From NCBI GenBank assembly GCA_031400935.1, contig JANNQV010000018.1, positions 62,001-126,000 on the forward strand: a stretch of DNA of 64,000 nucleotides. The letters are read 5' to 3'. A program made the translations under genes and the position numbers. The notes beneath the pieces are model-generated. The model was not told the origin of the DNA. It searched no databases and worked only from the letters and a program-made list of their open reading frames with translations. This DNA comes from Armatimonadota bacterium. Lineage in GTDB: Bacteria > Armatimonadota > Fimbriimonadia > Fimbriimonadales > Fimbriimonadaceae. Every line of letters starts with the position of its first letter. The first letter of the stretch is position 1. Below are positions 1 through 44,909 of this stretch, piece after piece.

Positions 1-1611
1 CTGTAGGCGAATTGGAGAAATTTGCGCAACTTTTAGAACGGTTTGCCCAGGGTTTACCAGAACGCCTGGACTAATCAGCCGTTGAGTGATTACTCCATCA
101 ACCTCAGCTTTTAGCTCGGCATATCCCTCCTGAGCAGCAGCGCTTTGATACCCAGCTCTTGCCTGTGCAACTCCAGCCTGTTCCTTGGCAATGTTGCGTT
201 TTGCAGCTTCGGCAGCGCTTTGTTTGCTCTTGATCATGGCTTCTGCCGCGCGGACGTCTGCCTGCGACTGCAATATCCGCTGCTTGGCTGCTGCGATCAT
301 CGCGACGGACTTTCTAACGCTTGCCTTTGCAGCGGAAACCTTCGACTCAGCTAGCCGCACCATTGAATTGGCCTGCTTCAGTTTTGATTGGGCTTCTGCT
401 GCTTCCGATTCGGCTTGCTGTAGTTCCGATCGGCTCACTGCACCTTGAGCAAAAAGTTGTTGCGCCCGCTTGAGTTCATCGGTTCGGAAACGGGAATTCT
501 CCGTTGCCGCTACTACCTCGGACCTGGCGGCTTCCAATTCGTTTTGCGTCGCCAAGACTTCGGATTCCATGACCTCTTTGTCCTGGAGTGCGGCTGCATG
601 CATCGCTAGGGCCTCATCCACGATGCCTCGTTTTGCCGCAGCTTCCGCGCGACCTTGGACAATTTCTTGTAGAGCAGTTTGGTACTCACTCGCGGCGACT
701 CCGACGCCTTGTGCCGCCATGTTGGTCATCGCTGCCTTTTCAGCGAGTTGTGGATTCAATTGAGAAGTATCAAGCCGCGCCAGCACTTGCCCTTTTTTCA
801 CCTTGTCGCCAACATAGTAGGGCATCCAGATGATGACCCCCGTTCCTCGCGGAATCACATCTTGCTCGACGAAACCAACGGCTTGTCCGGTGTAAGTAAC
901 CGTTTCAGAAAGCAGTCCGCGAGTTGCTGTCGCAAGTTCCACTGCGGTGCTTCCCGGAGGCGCAGGGGTGTTCATTTCCATTACTTGCGCTTCAAGAGGC
1001 GTCATCGCACCTTGGCGTCGCCAATTATTGACCGCATAGACTGCAATTGCCAACATCGCCCCTAAAAGGAGAACGCCGCCAAGGGTTCCGCGATTGAAAA
1101 TACTCTTAACATCGAGTTTCTGACCGGACGCCCTCACGCGAACAACGACAAAGATAACTATGGCAAGCAAAACTAGCCACGGAATCAAACTCAAAACCGA
1201 AAAGCCCGCGCCAGATGTTCCACCGGTGTCTTGTCCGGTCTTTAGAGGAATGGAAGCCGTTGCAGCTCCCATATGTCCGCTTATTTTGAGGTCAACCGAG
1301 TAACGGCCTGCCATCGGAAACGCGGCTAGCATCGCGTACACCCCAGGTTCGCCAGGCAAAGAATTGGCTTTAAGCTCTCGCTCGCCCATAAACATGCCCG
1401 GCATTTTGGCAATTGCGCGGACATCTAGCCCCTCCATTCTTTTGCCAGAAGAATCCGAAATTGCAAAGACGAGTTTTGCCTGGCCAACTGGAATTACCTT
1501 AGGCTGAGTTGAGAGCGAAATTCGGTAGGGTCCAGCTTGCGCTTCAACGCTTGCTTGGCAAAGCGCTGATAATAGGGCAAGGAAAATGATGAGTAAGCGG
1601 TGTAGTTTCAT
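1..1611 (-). CDS. RND efflux periplasmic adaptor (membrane fusion protein) with N-terminal YtkA/FixH-like domain; runs off the window
   Basis: Not in ORF track because it has no stop in the window. Hand translation from ATG 1611: MKLHRLLIIFLALLSALCQASVEAQAGPYRISL...MPGMFMGE...PGVY, two TM segments, lipoyl-like VGDKVKKGQVLARLD, long alpha-hairpin, then YAELKAEVDGVITQRLISPGVLVNPGQ. Downstream of tolC. Confidence 0.85.
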   Translation of the reverse strand, partial: MKLHRLLIIFLALLSALCQASVEAQAGPYRISLSTQPKVIPVGQAKLVFAISDSSGKRMEGLDVRAIAKMPGMFMGERELKANSLPGEPGVYAMLAAFPMAGRYSVDLKISGHMGAATASIPLKTGQDTGGTSGAGFSVLSLIPWLVLLAIVIFVVVRVRASGQKLDVKSIFNRGTLGGVLLLGAMLAIAVYAVNNWRRQGAMTPLEAQVMEMNTPAPPGSTAVELATATRGLLSETVTYTGQAVGFVEQDVIPRGTGVIIWMPYYVGDKVKKGQVLARLDTSQLNPQLAEKAAMTNMAAQGVGVAASEYQTALQEIVQGRAEAAAKRGIVDEALAMHAAALQDKEVMESEVLATQNELEAARSEVVAATENSRFRTDELKRAQQLFAQGAVSRSELQQAESEAAEAQSKLKQANSMVRLAESKVSAAKASVRKSVAMIAAAKQRILQSQADVRAAEAMIKSKQSAAEAAKRNIAKEQAGVAQARAGYQSAAAQEGYAELKAEVDGVITQRLISPGVLVNPGQTVLKVAQISPIRLQ

Positions 1612-15858: not shown

Positions 15859-17001
15859 ATGGCATTGATTCACTTCCTAGCACTAAGCGGAATTTTTGGA
15901 CATAACTCCAGCGACATAGATTCCAAAATTGCAGCAGTCTTGCCAACAGCAGAAGAAAACCGCTGGCTTGAAATCCCCTGGCGACTCGACCTTGGAGTGG
16001 CCAGAAAGGAAGCCGCGGAATCAAAAAAACCGCTTTTCATTTGGATGATGAACGGCCATCCAATGGGCTGTACGTGAAACAACGGACTTTGGGACCGGCG
16101 GTTCCTCTTTAGCAATCCAACTATCAGCAAGCGATTGCGCGAGCAATTTATACCTGTCGTGGGAAACACCCACGAGCTACAAAATGGCAGGAGCGATGCC
16201 AGAAATTGGTTTATGGCAGCTTCGGAGACTGTAAAGCCCGATGTAAAGAGCGGTAGTACTGCCCAAGGCTTTTATGTAATGACGGCAAGTGGAAGAGCAC
16301 TTGGATTTAACAACAATCGAAGCGTCGAGCGAGTTTTGCAACTAATGGATCGGGGGTTGGCAGCGTTCAAGCCTGAAACAGAGCCTAAGCCCGAAGATCT
16401 GCCGAAATGGGAATCAAAGCATTACGGACCAGAACCAACAACTTCGATTCTGCGAATTTTCGCTCGGGTTAAACCCAAAGTCGAAGGAGCCGATCCAGCA
16501 AACGATAACGTTGCGCAAGATCATGTCTGGTTTCTCAAATCGGAGATTCAGTCGCTCGTTGAATCTGGCTCATTGCCGGATTCAGCCACAAATCGCCTGT
16601 TCCGGTTTGCGTTTGTTGATAATGTTCGGGGTGAACCTGATCATTGGCAGCCAGGTGAAGTTAAAACAGCAATTCTCGATTTCAAAAGGGTCATCGAATT
16701 GGAAGGCAAAGTCACATTTGCCATAAGTGGACAATTCGCGATGGCTACTGCAAACGGACTGCGTGGGCTAGAAGGAACTCTAGAAGGTCGGGTTGTCGTG
16801 GATCGAAATGAATCAAAAGTTAGTGAGTGCAGAATCTATTCAGCAGCCAAGGCATGGGGACGGAGCACATACACTCCAAACCCGCCCGCCGGAAAATTTC
16901 CAATGGTATTCGCAATTGTTGAAACCAATGACGAAATATCGAAAGTTGTTCCGCCTCAGGCAATTTTTCATGGTTCGGAATATTTCAATCCTAAGCGTTA
17001 G
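15859..17001 (+). CDS. Candidate selenoprotein, thioredoxin-like fold (about 380 aa; in-frame TGA 16075-16077 = U73)
   Basis: Track ORFs 15859-16077 and 16135-17001 are in the same frame with a single TGA between them. The Trx motif continues across it: KPLFIWMMNGHPMGCT-U-NNGLWDRRFLFSNPTISKRLREQFIPV. The paralog at 42731 has the TGA at the same position. Confidence 0.8.
16091..16105 (+). promoter_or_regulatory. Putative bacterial SECIS hairpin
   Basis: GGGACC-GGC-GGTTCC stem-loop starting 13 nt after the TGA, with G in the loop. Confidence 0.5.
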
Positions 17002-33309: not shown

Positions 33310-33885
33310 ATGATTTTTACTTTTCTTGCAAATTTCCTGACTCACGTTCAAACGCCATCTACTCCTGCAGTTTCGGCAGAAGTTGTTTCAAAAATGCTTG
33401 TTAAGTCGCTATATGATTTTGAAGTAAATACAATTGACGGAAAATCCATCAGCATGAATCAGTATAAAGGCAATGCGATCTTAATTGTTAATGTTGCAAG
33501 TAAATGTGGCTATACTCCGCAATATGAAGGATTGCAGAAACTGTACGCTCACTACAAAGATAAAGGATTAATTGTCCTTGGGTTTCCGGCTAACAACTTT
33601 CGGAGCCAAGAGCCTGGTACCGATGATGAGATTCAAGAGTTTTGCAAAGCAACCTACGGCGTTACATTCCCATTATTCTCCAAAGTTTCGGTAAAGGGAA
33701 CTGATATGCATCCGATTTATCAGTGGCTACTTTCCAACTCTGATCCAGCCCAAAACATTGAATGGAATTTTAACAAGTTCGTAATTACTCGTTCAGGCAA
33801 GATACAAAACCGATTTAGTCAGAAAGTTAAACCAGATTCACCCGAAATGGTTGCAGCTATTGAATCTGCAATTGTAAACAAATGA
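33310..33885 (+). CDS. Glutathione peroxidase family protein (Cys form)
   Basis: NVASKCGYTPQY, GFPANNF..QEPG, WNFNKF. Confidence 0.93.
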   Translation: MIFTFLANFLTHVQTPSTPAVSAEVVSKMLVKSLYDFEVNTIDGKSISMNQYKGNAILIVNVASKCGYTPQYEGLQKLYAHYKDKGLIVLGFPANNFRSQEPGTDDEIQEFCKATYGVTFPLFSKVSVKGTDMHPIYQWLLSNSDPAQNIEWNFNKFVITRSGKIQNRFSQKVKPDSPEMVAAIESAIVNK

Positions 33886-40188: not shown

Positions 40189-41715
40189 ATGGCGATTCGA
40201 CCCGAAGAAATTACCTCGATCATCGAGGCCGAACTACAAAAATTTGAGCGCAAACCAGGTGTTGAGCACGTCGGTACCGTGCTTCAAGTTGGCGATGGAG
40301 TAGCTCGTGTTTATGGCCTGCCAGACTGTCAAATGGGAGAACTTCTTGAGTTCCCAGGCGGAGTTATGGGCCTTGCTTTGAACCTAGAAGAAGACTCAAT
40401 CGGTGCAGTTCTATTAGGTTCGGACGTTGAGATTCAAGAGGGGAACCCGGTTAAGGAAACGGGTCGAATCATTGAAATTCCCGTCGGCGAAGGCATCCTT
40501 GGGAGAGTCGTAAACACTCTCGGCCAGCCACTTGACGGCAAGGGCCCGATCGCAGCAACGGAATTCCGAAGACTTGAAGTTATCGCTCCAGGCGTTGTAG
40601 AAAGGCAGCCAGTTACAGAGCCGCTTCAAACAGGTATCAAGGCGGTTGACGCGATGATTCCAATCGGACGCGGCCAAAGAGAACTCGTAATCGGTGACCG
40701 CCAAACCGGAAAGACAACAGTGTGCATTGACACAATTCTCAACCAGAAATACACTCACGAACCTGGTCAATCGGCGGTTTATTGCATCTATGTCGTCATC
40801 GGACAAAAGATGTCGAACGTAGCTCGAATCGTAAACACGCTTACGCAATATGGCGCGATGGAATACACAACAGTTGTTGTTGCAACAGCTTCAGATTCAA
40901 ATGCAATGCAATATCTGGCTCCGTTTGCTGGCGCTGCAATTGGCGAGTACTTCCGCGATAACGGAAAGCATGCCTTGGCAGTCTACGATGATCTTACCAA
41001 GCATGCGCAAGCCTACCGAGCGGTTTCGCTATTGCTTCGACGCCCGCCAGGACGAGAAGCTTATCCTGGAGACGTTTTCTATCTTCACAGCCGCTTGTTA
41101 GAAAGAGCCGCGAAGATGTCAGACGCTTTAGGCGGCGGTTCTTTGACCGCTCTTCCAATCATCGAAACCCAACAGGGAGACGTTTCGGCATATATTCCGA
41201 CCAACGTTATTTCGATCACGGACGGCCAAATCTACCTTGAGCCAGATTTGTTCTTTGCTGGAATTCGACCTGCAATTAACGTGGGTATCTCGGTCAGCCG
41301 TGTAGGTGGAAACGCCCAGATCAAGGCGATGAAGAAAGTTGCCGGAAAACTCAAACTCGAAATGGCGCAATACCGCGACGTGGCGGCGTTTGCACAGTTT
41401 GCAAGCGACCTCGACCGAGCTACGCAAATGCAGCTACTTCGTGGACAAAGATTGACCGAACTATTGAAACAAGATTTGGCGACTCCATACGACGTTGTGG
41501 ATCAAGTAATCGCGATCTTTGGCGGTACTGGCGGATTTCTCGATGAAGTTCCGAACGACAAAGTTGCCGAGTTTGAAAAAGCTGCAATCGCTTATGTTCA
41601 TGAGAACTATCCAGACGTTGTTGAGACGATTCGAACGACGAAGGACCTTCCTGCCGACGCGGAGCAGACATTGCAAAAAGCGTATAAAGAATTTAGCGAG
41701 AAATTTGGGAAGTAA
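40189..41715 (+). CDS. atpA: F1 ATP synthase subunit alpha
   Basis: [31 protein letters not shown]. Confidence 0.98.
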
Positions 41716-41798
41716 GGGTATAGGGTTTAGGGTGTCAGACAAGTAGACACGCCCAACACTCTGCACCCTACGCCCAAAACACCATATCCTAAGAAACC

Positions 41799-42668
41799 AT
41801 GGCCACCCTCAAGCAACTTAGACAACGCATAAAGACAGCGAAGAACATCCAGCAGATTACGCGGGCGATGAAGCTGGTTGCCGCTGCCAGGTTCAAAAAG
41901 GCAACCGATAGGGTGCTGGAAGCACGACCATATTCTGACAAGCTCAAAGAATTTATGATGTCCTTGAGCGGTTCAGGCGATCTGCCAACTCACCCAATGA
42001 TGCAAAATCGCAGCGGCGACAACTATGCGCTGATCCTTATTAGTGCAGAACGCGGACTAGCTGGTTCGTTCAACACCAACCTGATTAGAAGGGCTGGAGA
42101 TTTTATGAAGGAGCAGTCTGGCGATGGCCAACTGATCACCGTCGGGAAGAAAGGCTACGGCTTCTTCAGCAAACGCGGCTATAAGATGACGCATCACGTT
42201 ACAGTTGCAAGCGCTGGAGCAACACTCGCCGACGCCCAAGACGTTGCTGGAGTCGCTCGTCAGCTTTTTGAATCTGGCGAGATAGACAAGCTTTACGTTT
42301 GCTATAGCAAATTCTTTTCAGCGATTCGCCAAGTTCCGACGATTGTGCAAATTCTGCCAATCGAACCACCCAAAGCTGACGAAACCAAACCTTCTGGTGA
42401 AGGTAAGTCCGACTACATTTTTGAACCCGACGCCGAAGGCGTTTTGAACCAGCTTCTGCCACGCTATTTCTTCACTCTAATCTGGCAAGCGCTCTTGGAA
42501 TCTACGGCGAGCGAATTCGGCTCCCGAATGACCGCAATGACAAGCGCGACCGACAACGCGGGCAAGATGATCCAAGAGCTTTCGCTTAAAGCGAACCGCA
42601 CACGCCAAGCTGGAATTACGACGGAGATTCTCGAAGTCGTCGGTGGCGCTGAAGCTCTGAATGGCTAA
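41799..42668 (+). CDS. atpG: F1 ATP synthase subunit gamma
   Basis: ITRAMKLVAAA, RGLAGSFN, RMTAM, RQAGITTEILE. Confidence 0.97.
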   Translation: MATLKQLRQRIKTAKNIQQITRAMKLVAAARFKKATDRVLEARPYSDKLKEFMMSLSGSGDLPTHPMMQNRSGDNYALILISAERGLAGSFNTNLIRRAGDFMKEQSGDGQLITVGKKGYGFFSKRGYKMTHHVTVASAGATLADAQDVAGVARQLFESGEIDKLYVCYSKFFSAIRQVPTIVQILPIEPPKADETKPSGEGKSDYIFEPDAEGVLNQLLPRYFFTLIWQALLESTASEFGSRMTAMTSATDNAGKMIQELSLKANRTRQAGITTEILEVVGGAEALNG

Positions 42669-42730
42669 GACTTAGCCCCCTTGCATCAGTTCTATTTCAA
42701 ACTAATAGCCTATGGTGCTACTATAGTCTT

Positions 42731-43915
42731 ATGCTGCCAATCGCAATTCTTGTGGCATCGTTAGTTCAGACTCAAGGGCTCGACCCGACAGCGGCGAACT
42801 TCGAATCGCTCCTCAAATTCATCCAGCCTGATGCAAAAGAACAAGCCTATAAAGAAATCTCGTGGAGAAACGAGTTTTGGCCCGCTGTATTAGAAGCAAA
42901 GCGATTGGGCCGCCCAATCTTCTTTTGGACGATGAACGGGCATCCGCTCGGCTGCACGTGAAACAACGGCGTCCGAGGACGCCAATTGGTCTGGTCAGAC
43001 CCTGAAATCAAGAAACTTAGCCGCGAATTTGTAACAGCTGCTGACGAAGTCTACATGCTATATCCTGAAGATCCGGGCAATCTAAATCGTGTCAAAGACC
43101 GCCCGGAACATCAGTTTTTCAAGAAATATGGTGAGGCGATGCCGCCTGGAGCCTGGCACCATCCCGGAACCAAGCAAGGCATCTACATGATCGGCCCAAA
43201 TGCGGAGTACTTAGAAGGGCGATTCGCTGCTTCGGGGGATGCTAGCGACATCCGTTCCCGAATGCAAACGGCTTTGCGAAAATGGGAAACACTTCGCAAG
43301 GAACAAGGCTACGCCAATCAGCCCGTTCCCGCAGTTACGTGGTCGCCTCCTCCAGGAATTTCTGGTGAACTGATTCTTCGTGTCAATATTCGTGATCTGC
43401 CTCGAGGGCCAGGCGATAAGAGCGGAGCGAGATTCGATGAGGTAGCAGGAAATCGTGAGGTCTTTCCCGACTATGTGAAATGGGCGTGGAACGAGAACTG
43501 GTTCGGGGCAGACCAAGCCCGCGCATTCGTCCCATCTGGAACAACTCGCGAGGAAGTCCCAACTGCCGTAGTTAGCCGCATGTGCCAAATTGTAATTGTG
43601 GACAATGTTCGGGGCCAAGCCGACAGATGGAGACCCGATGAAGTCAAAGAAGCTACGATCACTAAGCGATCTTTGGGCACTTCCGGTGGAGTTATGCAAA
43701 TTGAATATGGCGGTCGAATATCACTTGCCAGCGGTTCGCGTTCCATTGAAGGCAAACTCTTTGGTAAAGGCGAATGGGACGAGAAAAGGGGCGAGTTCAG
43801 AAGCCTGGACCTTTTGGTTGCTGCAATGAGGCGCGGAGCATCACGGTTTAACCGGCGGGAGAGCGATCCGGGTCCAGCACCGATAGGATTTTCGTTGGCA
43901 CTTCATAAACGGTAG
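42731..43915 (+). CDS. Candidate selenoprotein paralog 2, thioredoxin-like fold (about 394 aa; in-frame TGA 42959-42961 = U77)
   Basis: Track ORFs 42731-42961 and 42986-43915 are in one frame: RPIFFWTMNGHPLGCT-U-NNGVRGRQLVWSDPEIKKLSREFV. Shares QGxY and VDNVRG..D.W.P.EVK with paralog 1. Confidence 0.8.
42968..42983 (+). promoter_or_regulatory. Putative bacterial SECIS hairpin
   Basis: GGCGTC-CGAG-GACGCC perfect stem starting 6 nt after the TGA. Confidence 0.45.
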
Positions 43916-43925
43916 CATTGCTGGC

Positions 43926-44396
43926 ATGAAGTTCTTGCATTTTTGTTTTGCAGCACTTGCACTACTTCTAATCAGCTTTGGCTGCGGCGGAAATTGCAGT
44001 GACGTGCACGCTCGAGCAGTCTGTATTGAAAAACAAAGAGCACTTTATTACGGTATCGCAATTTATGCTGGAGATCATGACGGTGCCTATCCATTAACGG
44101 GTACTTGGCAAGACAGAATTCAGCTTTATGCTGGGCTACCTGACAGTGCCTTTGTGTGCCCGCAAATTGAATCAATAGGACCCAATTTTTACGGAATTGC
44201 ATTTAACACTCATTTGGCTAGAATCTATGCTTCGACCATCACTGATCCTGCGTCGTATTCTTGCTTCTTTGATACTGCAATTCTCACGAGGAACGCAGAA
44301 TCTACAGCCTCAACTTTGCCAATCCCAGTGCGGCATGGTGGAAACGTGATCTTTCGACTAGATGGAGCGGCAGTTCTGATTCCGCCACCAAATTAG
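43926..44396 (+). CDS. Lipoprotein with DUF1559/H-X9-DG-like core, tandem copy 1
   Basis: Lipobox SFGC, IYAGDHDGAYP, FVCP, RHGGNVIFRLDG. Confidence 0.7.
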   Translation: MKFLHFCFAALALLLISFGCGGNCSDVHARAVCIEKQRALYYGIAIYAGDHDGAYPLTGTWQDRIQLYAGLPDSAFVCPQIESIGPNFYGIAFNTHLARIYASTITDPASYSCFFDTAILTRNAESTASTLPIPVRHGGNVIFRLDGAAVLIPPPN

Positions 44397-44432: not shown

Positions 44433-44909
44433 GTGAACAAAACGATTATCAACCTGTCTCTCGTAGCCATTGTTGTCTGTATTTCTATCATTGGCTGCGG
44501 AGGGAACTGCCTTCTGCCAGTTTCACGTTCCCTATGCGTTGACCGGCAACGGTCGGTTAACTCGGCAATATTGATTTACGCGGCGGATCATGATGACTTT
44601 CTTCCCTTATCAGGAAAGTGGCACGAAGGGGTCATGTGGTATGCAGGACTCTATCAAATTGCATTCGTTTGTCCCCAAATAGAGCCGATGGGTCCGAATA
44701 ATTTTGGGATCGCATTTAACACAAATCTAGCTGGACTCAGAACTGTTGACATAGCAGAGCCAGCTACATATTCTTGCAACTTCGACTCAACAATTCTCAC
44801 AAGGAACGCAGAATCAACTTCTTCGACGGTTCCATCGCCCTCGCGGCACGGCGGAAATGTGATTTTTCGGCTCGATGGTGCGGCGGTTTCGTCGCCTCCA
44901 CCGAATTAA
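44433..44909 (+). CDS. Lipoprotein with DUF1559/H-X9-DG-like core, tandem copy 2
   Basis: Lipobox IIGC, IYAADHDDFLP, FVCPQIE, RHGGNVIFRLDG; close paralog of copy 1. Confidence 0.7.
   Translation: MNKTIINLSLVAIVVCISIIGCGGNCLLPVSRSLCVDRQRSVNSAILIYAADHDDFLPLSGKWHEGVMWYAGLYQIAFVCPQIEPMGPNNFGIAFNTNLAGLRTVDIAEPATYSCNFDSTILTRNAESTSSTVPSPSRHGGNVIFRLDGAAVSSPPPN

Follow-up and report, generated by a model that had tools for sequence, protein, structure and literature searches.

A predicted exported selenoprotein encoded across an in-frame TGA in an Armatimonadota genome

Does the TGA at codon 77 of a 394-codon frame end a short gene, or is it read as selenocysteine (Sec) inside a long one? The frame lies at 42731-43915 of a 64,000-nucleotide stretch from an Armatimonadota bacterium (contig JANNQV010000018.1; the whole stretch is hereafter called the window). 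An initial annotation, made from the sequence, had proposed that its UGA is decoded, pointing to a strongly diverged paralog in the same window with TGA at the same motif position. We found that decoding of this UGA is supported by codon conservation, by the presence of Cys homologs, by the Sec machinery and by a fold that spans the TGA. In our assessment, 42731-43915 is very probably a single gene that encodes an exported selenoprotein of some 394 residues, with the UGA predicted to be Sec, and the insertion of Sec at this codon is itself predicted with high confidence.

The frame, its paralogs and the conserved TGA

The single frame runs on the + strand from an ATG at 42731 to a TAG at 43913-43915, and its lone in-frame TGA is codon 77 (U77, nt 42959-42961). 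The motif WTMNGHPLGCT-TGA was present as first quoted, and the frame was open through to the TAG. The first open reading frame (ORF), 42731..42961, ends in ...FFWTMNGHPLGCT-TGA, and the same frame resumes with NNGVRGRQLVWSDPE...; the codon stands in the context ...FFWTMNGHPLG-C-T-[TGA]-N-N-G-VRGRQLVWSDPE..., with the motif G-C-T-U-N-N-G. Read with translation table 11, the locus appears instead as a 76-codon ORF and a 309-codon ORF (42986-43915) that begins at a TTG eight codons past the TGA. The features of the coding region are the following.

42731..43915, + strand: whole predicted selenoprotein gene, based on one frame, a full-length alignment to the paralog and 41 relatives, and an AlphaFold2 (AF2) whole-chain model
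42953..42961, + strand: predicted redox motif Cys75-Thr76-Sec77 (TGC ACG TGA), based on the reading of the frame; the motif is kept in relatives
15859..17001, + strand: paralog of 380 codons within the window, with its TGA (U73) at 16075-16077, based on BLASTP, the reading of the frame and a hairpin

The read-through proteins of the target gene and of this paralog share 26% identity over 375 columns (BLASTP, E 5e-33) in an alignment that crosses the TGA, a similarity that, judged from the two sequences, lies far beyond chance. The codon of the paralog stands in the context ...WMMNGHPMG-C-T-[TGA]-N-N-G-LWDRRF..., with NNGLWDRRFLFSNPT after the TGA, which confirmed the earlier observation of a diverged copy with TGA at the same column, in the same frame and with NNG next. 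A third paralog was located outside the window (G000:C17:122453-123682). It has 409 codons and adjacent Cys and Sec residues (...FGDPRGGCUQNGVKTRQFVW...), a C-U subtype (G-C-U-Q-N-G) that was also encountered in locus L048. All three paralogs of the genome retain the TGA. Separately, it was noted that another frame of this genome (L052, G000:C58:4546-7716, open at about 1300-2358 on the + strand) contains an in-frame TGA in ...LLLSAAPQCSEVPGDWUPGKQDID... and has a faint match to the VPGUxxT profile NF041383 (11.7 bits, profile positions 5-54). This frame may be a further unannotated selenoprotein of the genome.

We then assessed the codon across the phylum of the window through a six-frame search of 401 genomes in which stops were read through and counted. 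The search returned 54 match rows, representing 53 genes in 31 genomes. Exactly one TGA was present in 52 of the 54 rows, while three TGAs were recorded in a gene at a contig end (G290:C100), and the sole TGA-free row was a C-terminal fragment of that same three-TGA gene. All 53 homologous genes have an in-frame TGA, and no stop-free (Cys-form) homolog was found in the 401 genomes. TGA stood at the motif position in 30/30 loci returned from this sample, and the motif [GA]-C-x-U-N-N-[GA] was present in 29 of them, with the remaining locus reading H-C-U-Q-N-G.

A wider scan of bacteria and archaea, with one genome per species, gave 342 relatives, of which the best 80 loci were read. The codon at the site was TGA in 79 of these 80, a count drawn from a scan that was seeded with Sec-type subfamily motifs and is biased toward Sec forms; the 401-genome search is free of this seeding bias. 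The 80 loci were derived from Armatimonadota, Planctomycetota (including the cultured Saltatorellus ferox Poly30, L102), one Verrucomicrobiales metagenome-assembled genome (MAG) and one Acidobacteriota MAG. The one non-TGA locus (L124, 2501-3598) carries the codon GCC (Ala) in ...MNGHPMACT-A-GNG.... It was noted that its MAG also has a TGA copy (L119), and that the database protein P0134 is of the same Ala type. Two further TGA forms, L117 (...GHPCAVVU...) and L126 (...GHPCGETU...), have the partner Cys four residues upstream of Sec, and the spacing of Cys and Sec in the family is therefore variable (C-U, C-x-U and C-x-x-x-U). The frame was continuous at the TGA, with a spacing between the two halves that was always zero. 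The codon as tabulated across homologs was TGA in 30/30 and 79/80 loci, and the pattern that the initial annotation had named as contrary to its proposal, separate halves at a variable spacing, was not encountered, given that the spacing was zero throughout and one fold spans the TGA.

The public records present the family mostly in pieces. A search of the read-through query against 5.8 billion proteins gave 329 matches, and the best 120 of these are C-terminal pieces of 251-332 residues that cover 65-80% of the query. Where these 120 matches carry any name it is "hypothetical protein", and they come from Fimbriimonadaceae, Chthonomonas and Planctomycetes MAGs. When 1.84 billion cluster representatives (50% identity) were searched exhaustively with HMMER, 1041 matched at E <= 0.001. 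Sorted by their best-scoring stretch, the best 150 of the 1041 comprised 24 proteins that span the site, six N-terminal pieces, and 120 that start at residue 81 or later. The six N-terminal pieces stop exactly at residue 76, with P0194 and P0199 ending in ...MNGHPLGCT. One of the 120 late starters, P0208, was found on inspection to span the site as well, which brought the spanning proteins to 25.

A Cys aligned to a UGA is the classic selenoprotein signature. Among the 25 full-length non-TGA homologs, the residue at the Sec column was Cys in 8 (P0143, P0147, P0160, P0172, P0178, P0183, P0231 and P0208), Ser in 7, Asp, Arg and Gly in 2 each, and Ala, Trp, Tyr and Asn in 1 each. Because residues other than Cys stand at this column, part of the family has, to judge by its sequences, given up the redox residue. 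In P0167, P0173 and P0178 the module lies C-terminal of a Ser/Thr kinase-like domain and a hydrophobic segment, and all three are Sec-less; in P0219 and P0239 a Sec-less module follows long N-terminal regions that are anti-sigma-like by eye only. The site residues of these five proteins are Ser, Asp, Cys, Gly and Tyr, and in such Sec-less relatives the scaffold is probably used as an extracytoplasmic binding or sensor domain. It was also noted that P0189 (Arg) and P0206 (Trp) are short database fragments with the exact flanks GCT-x-NNG. These may be single-base variants of TGA (CGA/AGA and TGG, respectively) or, for Trp, the product of a gene call with TGA=Trp.

Selenocysteine machinery and the hairpins after the UGA

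The host assembly (2.97 Mb, 67 contigs, 95.6% complete) contains selB (360 bits, cut-off 242), selA (452 bits), selD (354 bits) and a tRNA-Sec that scored 66 bits against an Rfam cut-off of 47 and was called by ARAGORN as tRNA-SeC with the anticodon TCA (UCA). The host selD (L016, G000:C15:154211-158116) is a Sec-type selenophosphate synthetase, since it has one in-frame TGA inside. TGA is also an ordinary stop in this genome. It closes 433 of the 1358 host open frames that have 300 codons or more, compared to 526 closed by TAG and 399 by TAA, and 6 of 30 family genes themselves end in a TGA stop, one of these being a broken copy at a contig end with extra TGAs. The glutathione peroxidase (GPx) of the window had been described as the Cys form, and this held, as it reads NVASKCG with no internal stop (window 33409-33729).

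We found that the TGA form is tied to Sec machinery, with selA or selB present in 31/31 carriers of the phylum sample and selB in 49/50 searched carriers of the wider scan. In the phylum sample, selA was detected in 30 of the 31 carrier genomes compared to 218 of the 401 genomes overall, and the carrier without a selA match (G268, 92% complete) gave a selB match of 373 bits. Among genomes of the taxonomic family that the window comes from, the gene was found in 17 of 23 selA-positive genomes and in 0 of 24 selA-negative genomes. The wider scan was searched for selB in 50 carrier genomes (50 of the 79 TGA loci). Here selB was present at E <= 1e-60 in 49 and above the curated cut-off in 48, and the single miss was a 1.7 Mb assembly. 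Related genomes in these co-occurrence counts are not independent, and the number of events is overstated. The co-occurrence with sel genes that had been anticipated was thus observed, both in the host (selA, selB, selD and tRNA-Sec) and among the carriers, and the opposing case of a TGA form in genomes without Sec machinery did not arise in the carriers examined.

Downstream of the UGA, two hairpins were found in the target gene and one in its paralog.

42968..42983, + strand: first hairpin, GGCGUC-CGAG-GACGCC, +10 to +25, from the minimum free energy (MFE) fold; paired in 90.5% of cells among 63 orthologs
42988..43001, + strand: second hairpin, GGUCU-GGUC-AGACC, +30 to +43, with a G-rich apical loop, from the rule for bacterial Sec insertion sequences (bSECIS); 93.3% paired among 63 orthologs
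16091-16105, + strand: paralog hairpin, GGGACC-GGC-GGUUCC, from folding after the paralog UGA

A SECIS after the target UGA is likely to be formed by one or the other of the first two. The better candidate is the hairpin at +30..+43, the only one in the target that satisfies the bSECIS-type rule (a stem of at least 5 bp with a loop of 3-7 nt that begins at +17..+40 and has G in positions 1-2). The helix of the first hairpin showed no two-sided changes among the 63 orthologs. The 62 nt after the target UGA fold with an MFE of -17.2 kcal/mol (z -1.98; a stability reached by 9 of 200 shuffles), and only 0.6% of the other in-frame windows of the gene are as stable as the +6..+50 window (rank 0.006). 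Across the family, a rule-type hairpin 3' of the UGA was found in 28/31 genes compared to 26% on average at the remaining in-frame positions of those genes, and a variant of the rule with a stem of at least 6 bp was satisfied in 20/31 genes compared to 12% in the control. Eight different stem sequences were recorded across the subfamilies of these 31 genes, and the third paralog of the genome has an 8-bp hairpin 3' of its UGA (GACCAGGC-AGUUC-GUCUGGUC). The occurrence of hairpins in 28/31 genes with eight different stems is the strongest sign that structure and not sequence has been kept. No SECIS-like Rfam match was obtained at E <= 10 over 42700-43950, where three rows at chance level were returned.

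Fold, export and relation to described families

The protein was modelled with AF2 from an alignment of 42 sequences, the Sec being represented by Cys. The whole-chain model had a predicted local distance difference test (pLDDT) score of 90.7 and a predicted template modelling (pTM) score of 0.89, and the U-to-C modelling that had been suggested as a check therefore gave a confident structure, with a thioredoxin fold across the TGA. Three regions were distinguished along the chain.

42845..43303, + strand: thioredoxin-fold domain, residues 39-191, spanning the TGA, from VIA-align and Foldseek on the model
43364..43912, + strand: C-terminal meander beta-barrel, residues ~212-394, with VDNVRGQ (D291, R294, G295) and R221, from a domain model
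42731..42778, + strand: probable signal peptide, residues 1-16, MLPIAILVASLVQTQG, by eye (short, hydrophobic, low pLDDT)

The best VIA-align match of the model was 3f9u_B, the C-terminal domain of an exported cytochrome c biogenesis-related protein (Z 12.8, root mean square deviation 1.9 A over 106 residues, model range 39..189), followed by AGR3 (Z 11.0), DsbH (Z 10.1) and DsbD-gamma (Z 9.5). In total 22 chains had Z >= 8, all of the listed ones being thioredoxin-like, and Foldseek recovered the same set with a probability of 1.00. In a thioredoxin fold the redox-active residues stand at the N-terminal end of the first helix. U77 of the model comes after the strand 63-68 and directly before the helix 78-87, and the start of this helix carries C75-T-U77 (C-x-U) in place of a CxxC-type motif. 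The NNG right after the TGA is among the most conserved residues of the family, and the remaining conserved residues, R221 and VDNVRGQ, sit in the barrel domain. Modelled alone, the C-terminal domain reached a pLDDT of 91.3. Its best VIA-align matches (Z 7.7; PagL, with outer-membrane and designed barrels) fall in the range that the tool calls a common arrangement, and no Foldseek relative of the barrel was found at E <= 0.001.

Because the N-terminus is hydrophobic and clearer export signals were seen by eye in relatives (MKKFAAILLLGMTTFASAQ in L040, and the twin-arginine-like SRRAVF, of the form SRRxF, in L038), we infer that the target protein is exported. A working model of the protein can be outlined from these features. 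SelB and Sec-tRNA(Sec) would be recruited by a stem-loop within 45 nt after the UGA, for which +30..+43 is the best candidate, and Sec would be inserted. C75 and Sec77, two residues apart, could then form a reversible selenenylsulfide, and the protein would act as a thiol/selenol oxidoreductase (reductase, isomerase or peroxidase) in the periplasm or cell envelope, with the C-terminal barrel, through VDNVRGQ and R221, possibly binding the substrate or a partner.

The neighbouring genes of the window gave no functional hint by Pfam. Directly downstream of the target, at window 43926-44396 and 44433-44909 (+), are two tandem paralogous ORFs of 156 and 158 residues, for which Pfam gave no match at E <= 0.001. 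In both, ...GCGGNC... comes after a hydrophobic N-terminus, an arrangement that by eye is lipoprotein-like, and the two have the C-terminal sequence ...RHGGNVIFRLDGAAV... in common. Just upstream, at window 40189-42668 (+), end the genes of two ATP synthase subunits, gamma (PF00231, E 2.8e-95) and, by eye, alpha. In ATP synthase operons the beta subunit gene usually follows gamma, at the place where the selenoprotein gene stands here.

We next compared the target with described families. It had no Pfam match at E <= 1, no Pfam or NCBIfam model reached its cut-off, and the sole NCBIfam match, at 12 bits, is at chance level. A profile search of PDB sequences with the family alignment gave 0 matches at E <= 1, and the C-terminal ORF reached only unnamed clusters in the ESM Atlas. 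DsbD-gamma, Thioredoxin_7 (PF13899) and DsbH (PF03190), represented by 3f9u, 1vrs and 2ju5, resemble the target in fold, in export (predicted for the target) and in the position of the redox site at the first-helix start. However, the target has C-x-U rather than CxxC and an extra 190-residue beta-barrel, and its identity to these structures is 12-17%. PF13899 matched weakly in 7/42 relatives (best E 0.0023) and PF03190 in 1/42 (E 0.088), both below the gathering score, and the target itself had no match to either at E <= 1.

The likeness to GPx (PF00255) is one of the thioredoxin fold, with GPx structures low in the Foldseek list (probability 0.77-0.89). In GPx, the Sec or Cys stands where the first helix begins, after the first strand. 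PF00255 had no match in the target or the 42 relatives, the genome-wide scan matched other loci only, and, unlike the target, the GPx of this genome is encoded by a Cys-type gene of its own. Mammalian thioredoxin reductase has a C-terminal Gly-Cys-Sec-Gly redox centre. By analogy with it, a Cys adjoining Sec or one residue away from it might form a small-ring selenenylsulfide. Thioredoxin reductase is an unrelated protein, and its Sec lies in a C-terminal tail whereas that of the target lies at the helix start of a thioredoxin fold.

Of the explanations other than a separate family, the one that survives best is that the gene is a divergent member of a described family, either VPGUxxT (NF041382/NF041383) or another listed thioredoxin-like entry, which we nonetheless regard as unlikely. 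Table 1 of PMC13188914 (2026) lists 119 selenoprotein families, nearly all with domain ids, and the VPGUxxT entry ('hypothetical protein OS_HP5') is likewise a thioredoxin-like selenoprotein, with its function unassigned in that table. NF041383 matched 6/42 relatives (best E 6e-4) and NF041382 matched 2/42, over the first ~60 profile positions; the window paralog matched NF041383 with 13.7 bits (E 0.036), and the scan of the host genome gave 13 bits at this paralog. However, the target had no match, the family scores of 13-24 bits compare to a cut-off of 275, the motif is G-C-T-U-N-N-G and not V-P-G-U-x-x-T, and the proteins have ~390 residues compared to a 287-position profile. PF13192, a thioredoxin-like CxU entry compared here from its row in Table 1, shares the C-x-U motif, and it had no match at E <= 0.1 in the 42 relatives. 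The four C-x-U entries of the table (NF041203, NF041198, NF041072 and PF13192) had no match to the family, and no Table 1 entry with a domain id was reached by it. The entries defined by CDD (cd02966, cd02970, cd10141 and cd01144) are set apart from the family by their listed motifs only (UxxC, UGC, UxxS, GxUC, CU and CxxU). No description of the motif or the family was found in the passages covered of PMC13188914, PMC12013277, PMC13326102, PMC4807772 and PMC2398784. The 'Hypothetical protein GOS_A' of PMC2398784, which is given in that text without a sequence, may belong to the same family.

Alternative readings of the TGA and meaning of the family

Several observations weigh against the reading of the gene as a selenoprotein with a redox function. 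The presence of Ser, Asp, Arg, Ala and Asn at the site in many relatives indicates that the scaffold can work without a redox residue, and the bias of the wider scan applies to the count of 79/80. No RNA runs containing the stretch were found; it is contained in 3 DNA runs of one study, 2 of which are maybe from the source sample. Among the family genes, 3/31 lack a rule-type hairpin. The stability rank after the UGA has a median of 0.21, is at or below 0.1 in 7/31 genes, and is 0.39 in the window's paralog. In the 63 close orthologs, 91.8% of cells are paired compared to 91.1% in shuffles, with one pair changed on both sides. The two helices are thus conserved with little covariation, as are the amino acids that they encode, and the comparison speaks neither way for a structure. 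With regard to function, the motif is C-x-U, unlike the usual CxxC/CxxU, and no conserved neighbour genes beyond close relatives were found with Pfam in 118/147 flanking ORFs of related loci, where the tallies were sodium:solute symporter 5, ParA-like 3, peptidase S9 3 and ApbE 2. The oxidoreductase role, which the fold and the motif suggest, is in our view somewhat probable.

Read-through of the UGA other than as Sec, through near-cognate insertion of Trp, Cys or Arg or through local reassignment, is very unlikely. The Trp and Arg fragments P0206 and P0189, with identical GCT-x-NNG flanks, are what such a reading would draw on. However, a complete Sec system is encoded in the genome, where TGA is also a frequent stop, and selA or selB in 31/31 and 49/50 TGA carriers is a pattern unexpected for Sec-independent reading. 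Homologs most often have Cys, which is chemically analogous to Sec, or Ser at the site, and the SECIS-like hairpin in 28/31 genes likewise argues for Sec.

It is scarcely probable that the TGA is a true stop between two genes, a 76-residue secreted peptide and the 309-codon ORF 42986-43915 from TTG, because one confident thioredoxin fold (39-191) crosses the codon and neither half would be a complete domain. Gene callers do split the family in this way, with database pieces of ~280-330 residues for the C-terminal part and 76-90 residues for the N-terminal part, and a TTG does lie eight codons past the TGA. However, the frame and the zero spacing are kept in 30/30 and 79/80 loci, distant homologs are uninterrupted with Cys or another residue at the site, the conserved NNG lies upstream of the supposed TTG start, and the TGA form is seen with Sec machinery (31/31 and 49/50 carriers). 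That the TGAs are nonsense mutations in decayed genes can be practically dismissed. Pseudogenes are usually marked by an in-frame stop, and the relative at a contig end (G290:C100) has 3 TGAs. However, TGA recurs at one and the same column, both in 53 genes of a single phylum and in 79/80 loci from several phyla; no other stops or frameshifts are present, conservation of the protein extends to either side, and all three host paralogs retain the TGA.

The reading of UGA as Sec thus remains the preferred one, and the gene appears to belong to a widespread and apparently uncurated selenoprotein family of a known kind, the thioredoxin-fold selenoproteins. What sets it apart is its predicted export, the motif C-x-U, a second domain whose structure has no clear counterpart, and the finding that the phylum sample contained no Cys forms. 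Taken together, these could describe a group of unnamed, essentially obligate-Sec exported two-domain enzymes, with a C-x-U/C-U selenenylsulfide centre on a thioredoxin fold and a barrel of no known family, retained at up to four copies in single genomes of Armatimonadota and encountered in Planctomycetota as well. The gene would be lost, not Cys-converted, when the Sec machinery is lost, and the Sec-less cousins would have been recruited as extracytoplasmic sensors of Ser/Thr kinases and of proteins whose N-termini are anti-sigma-like. We offer this joint reading tentatively, as a possibility that is rather doubtful as a whole.

Because gene finders halve the family and its pieces are named "hypothetical protein", it is likely misannotated or unnamed in at least 342 places in species-representative genomes and in 1041 protein clusters (50% identity). 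A curated HMM with a Sec-aware rule would mend this annotation, and the prediction could be tested in a carrier that is in culture, Saltatorellus ferox Poly30 (L102). The finding would add a selenoprotein family to Armatimonadota and Planctomycetota, phyla that go unmentioned in the searched text of a 2026 review. If the joint obligate-Sec reading is true, these bacteria would have a redox substrate or signal in the cell envelope for which selenium is indispensable.

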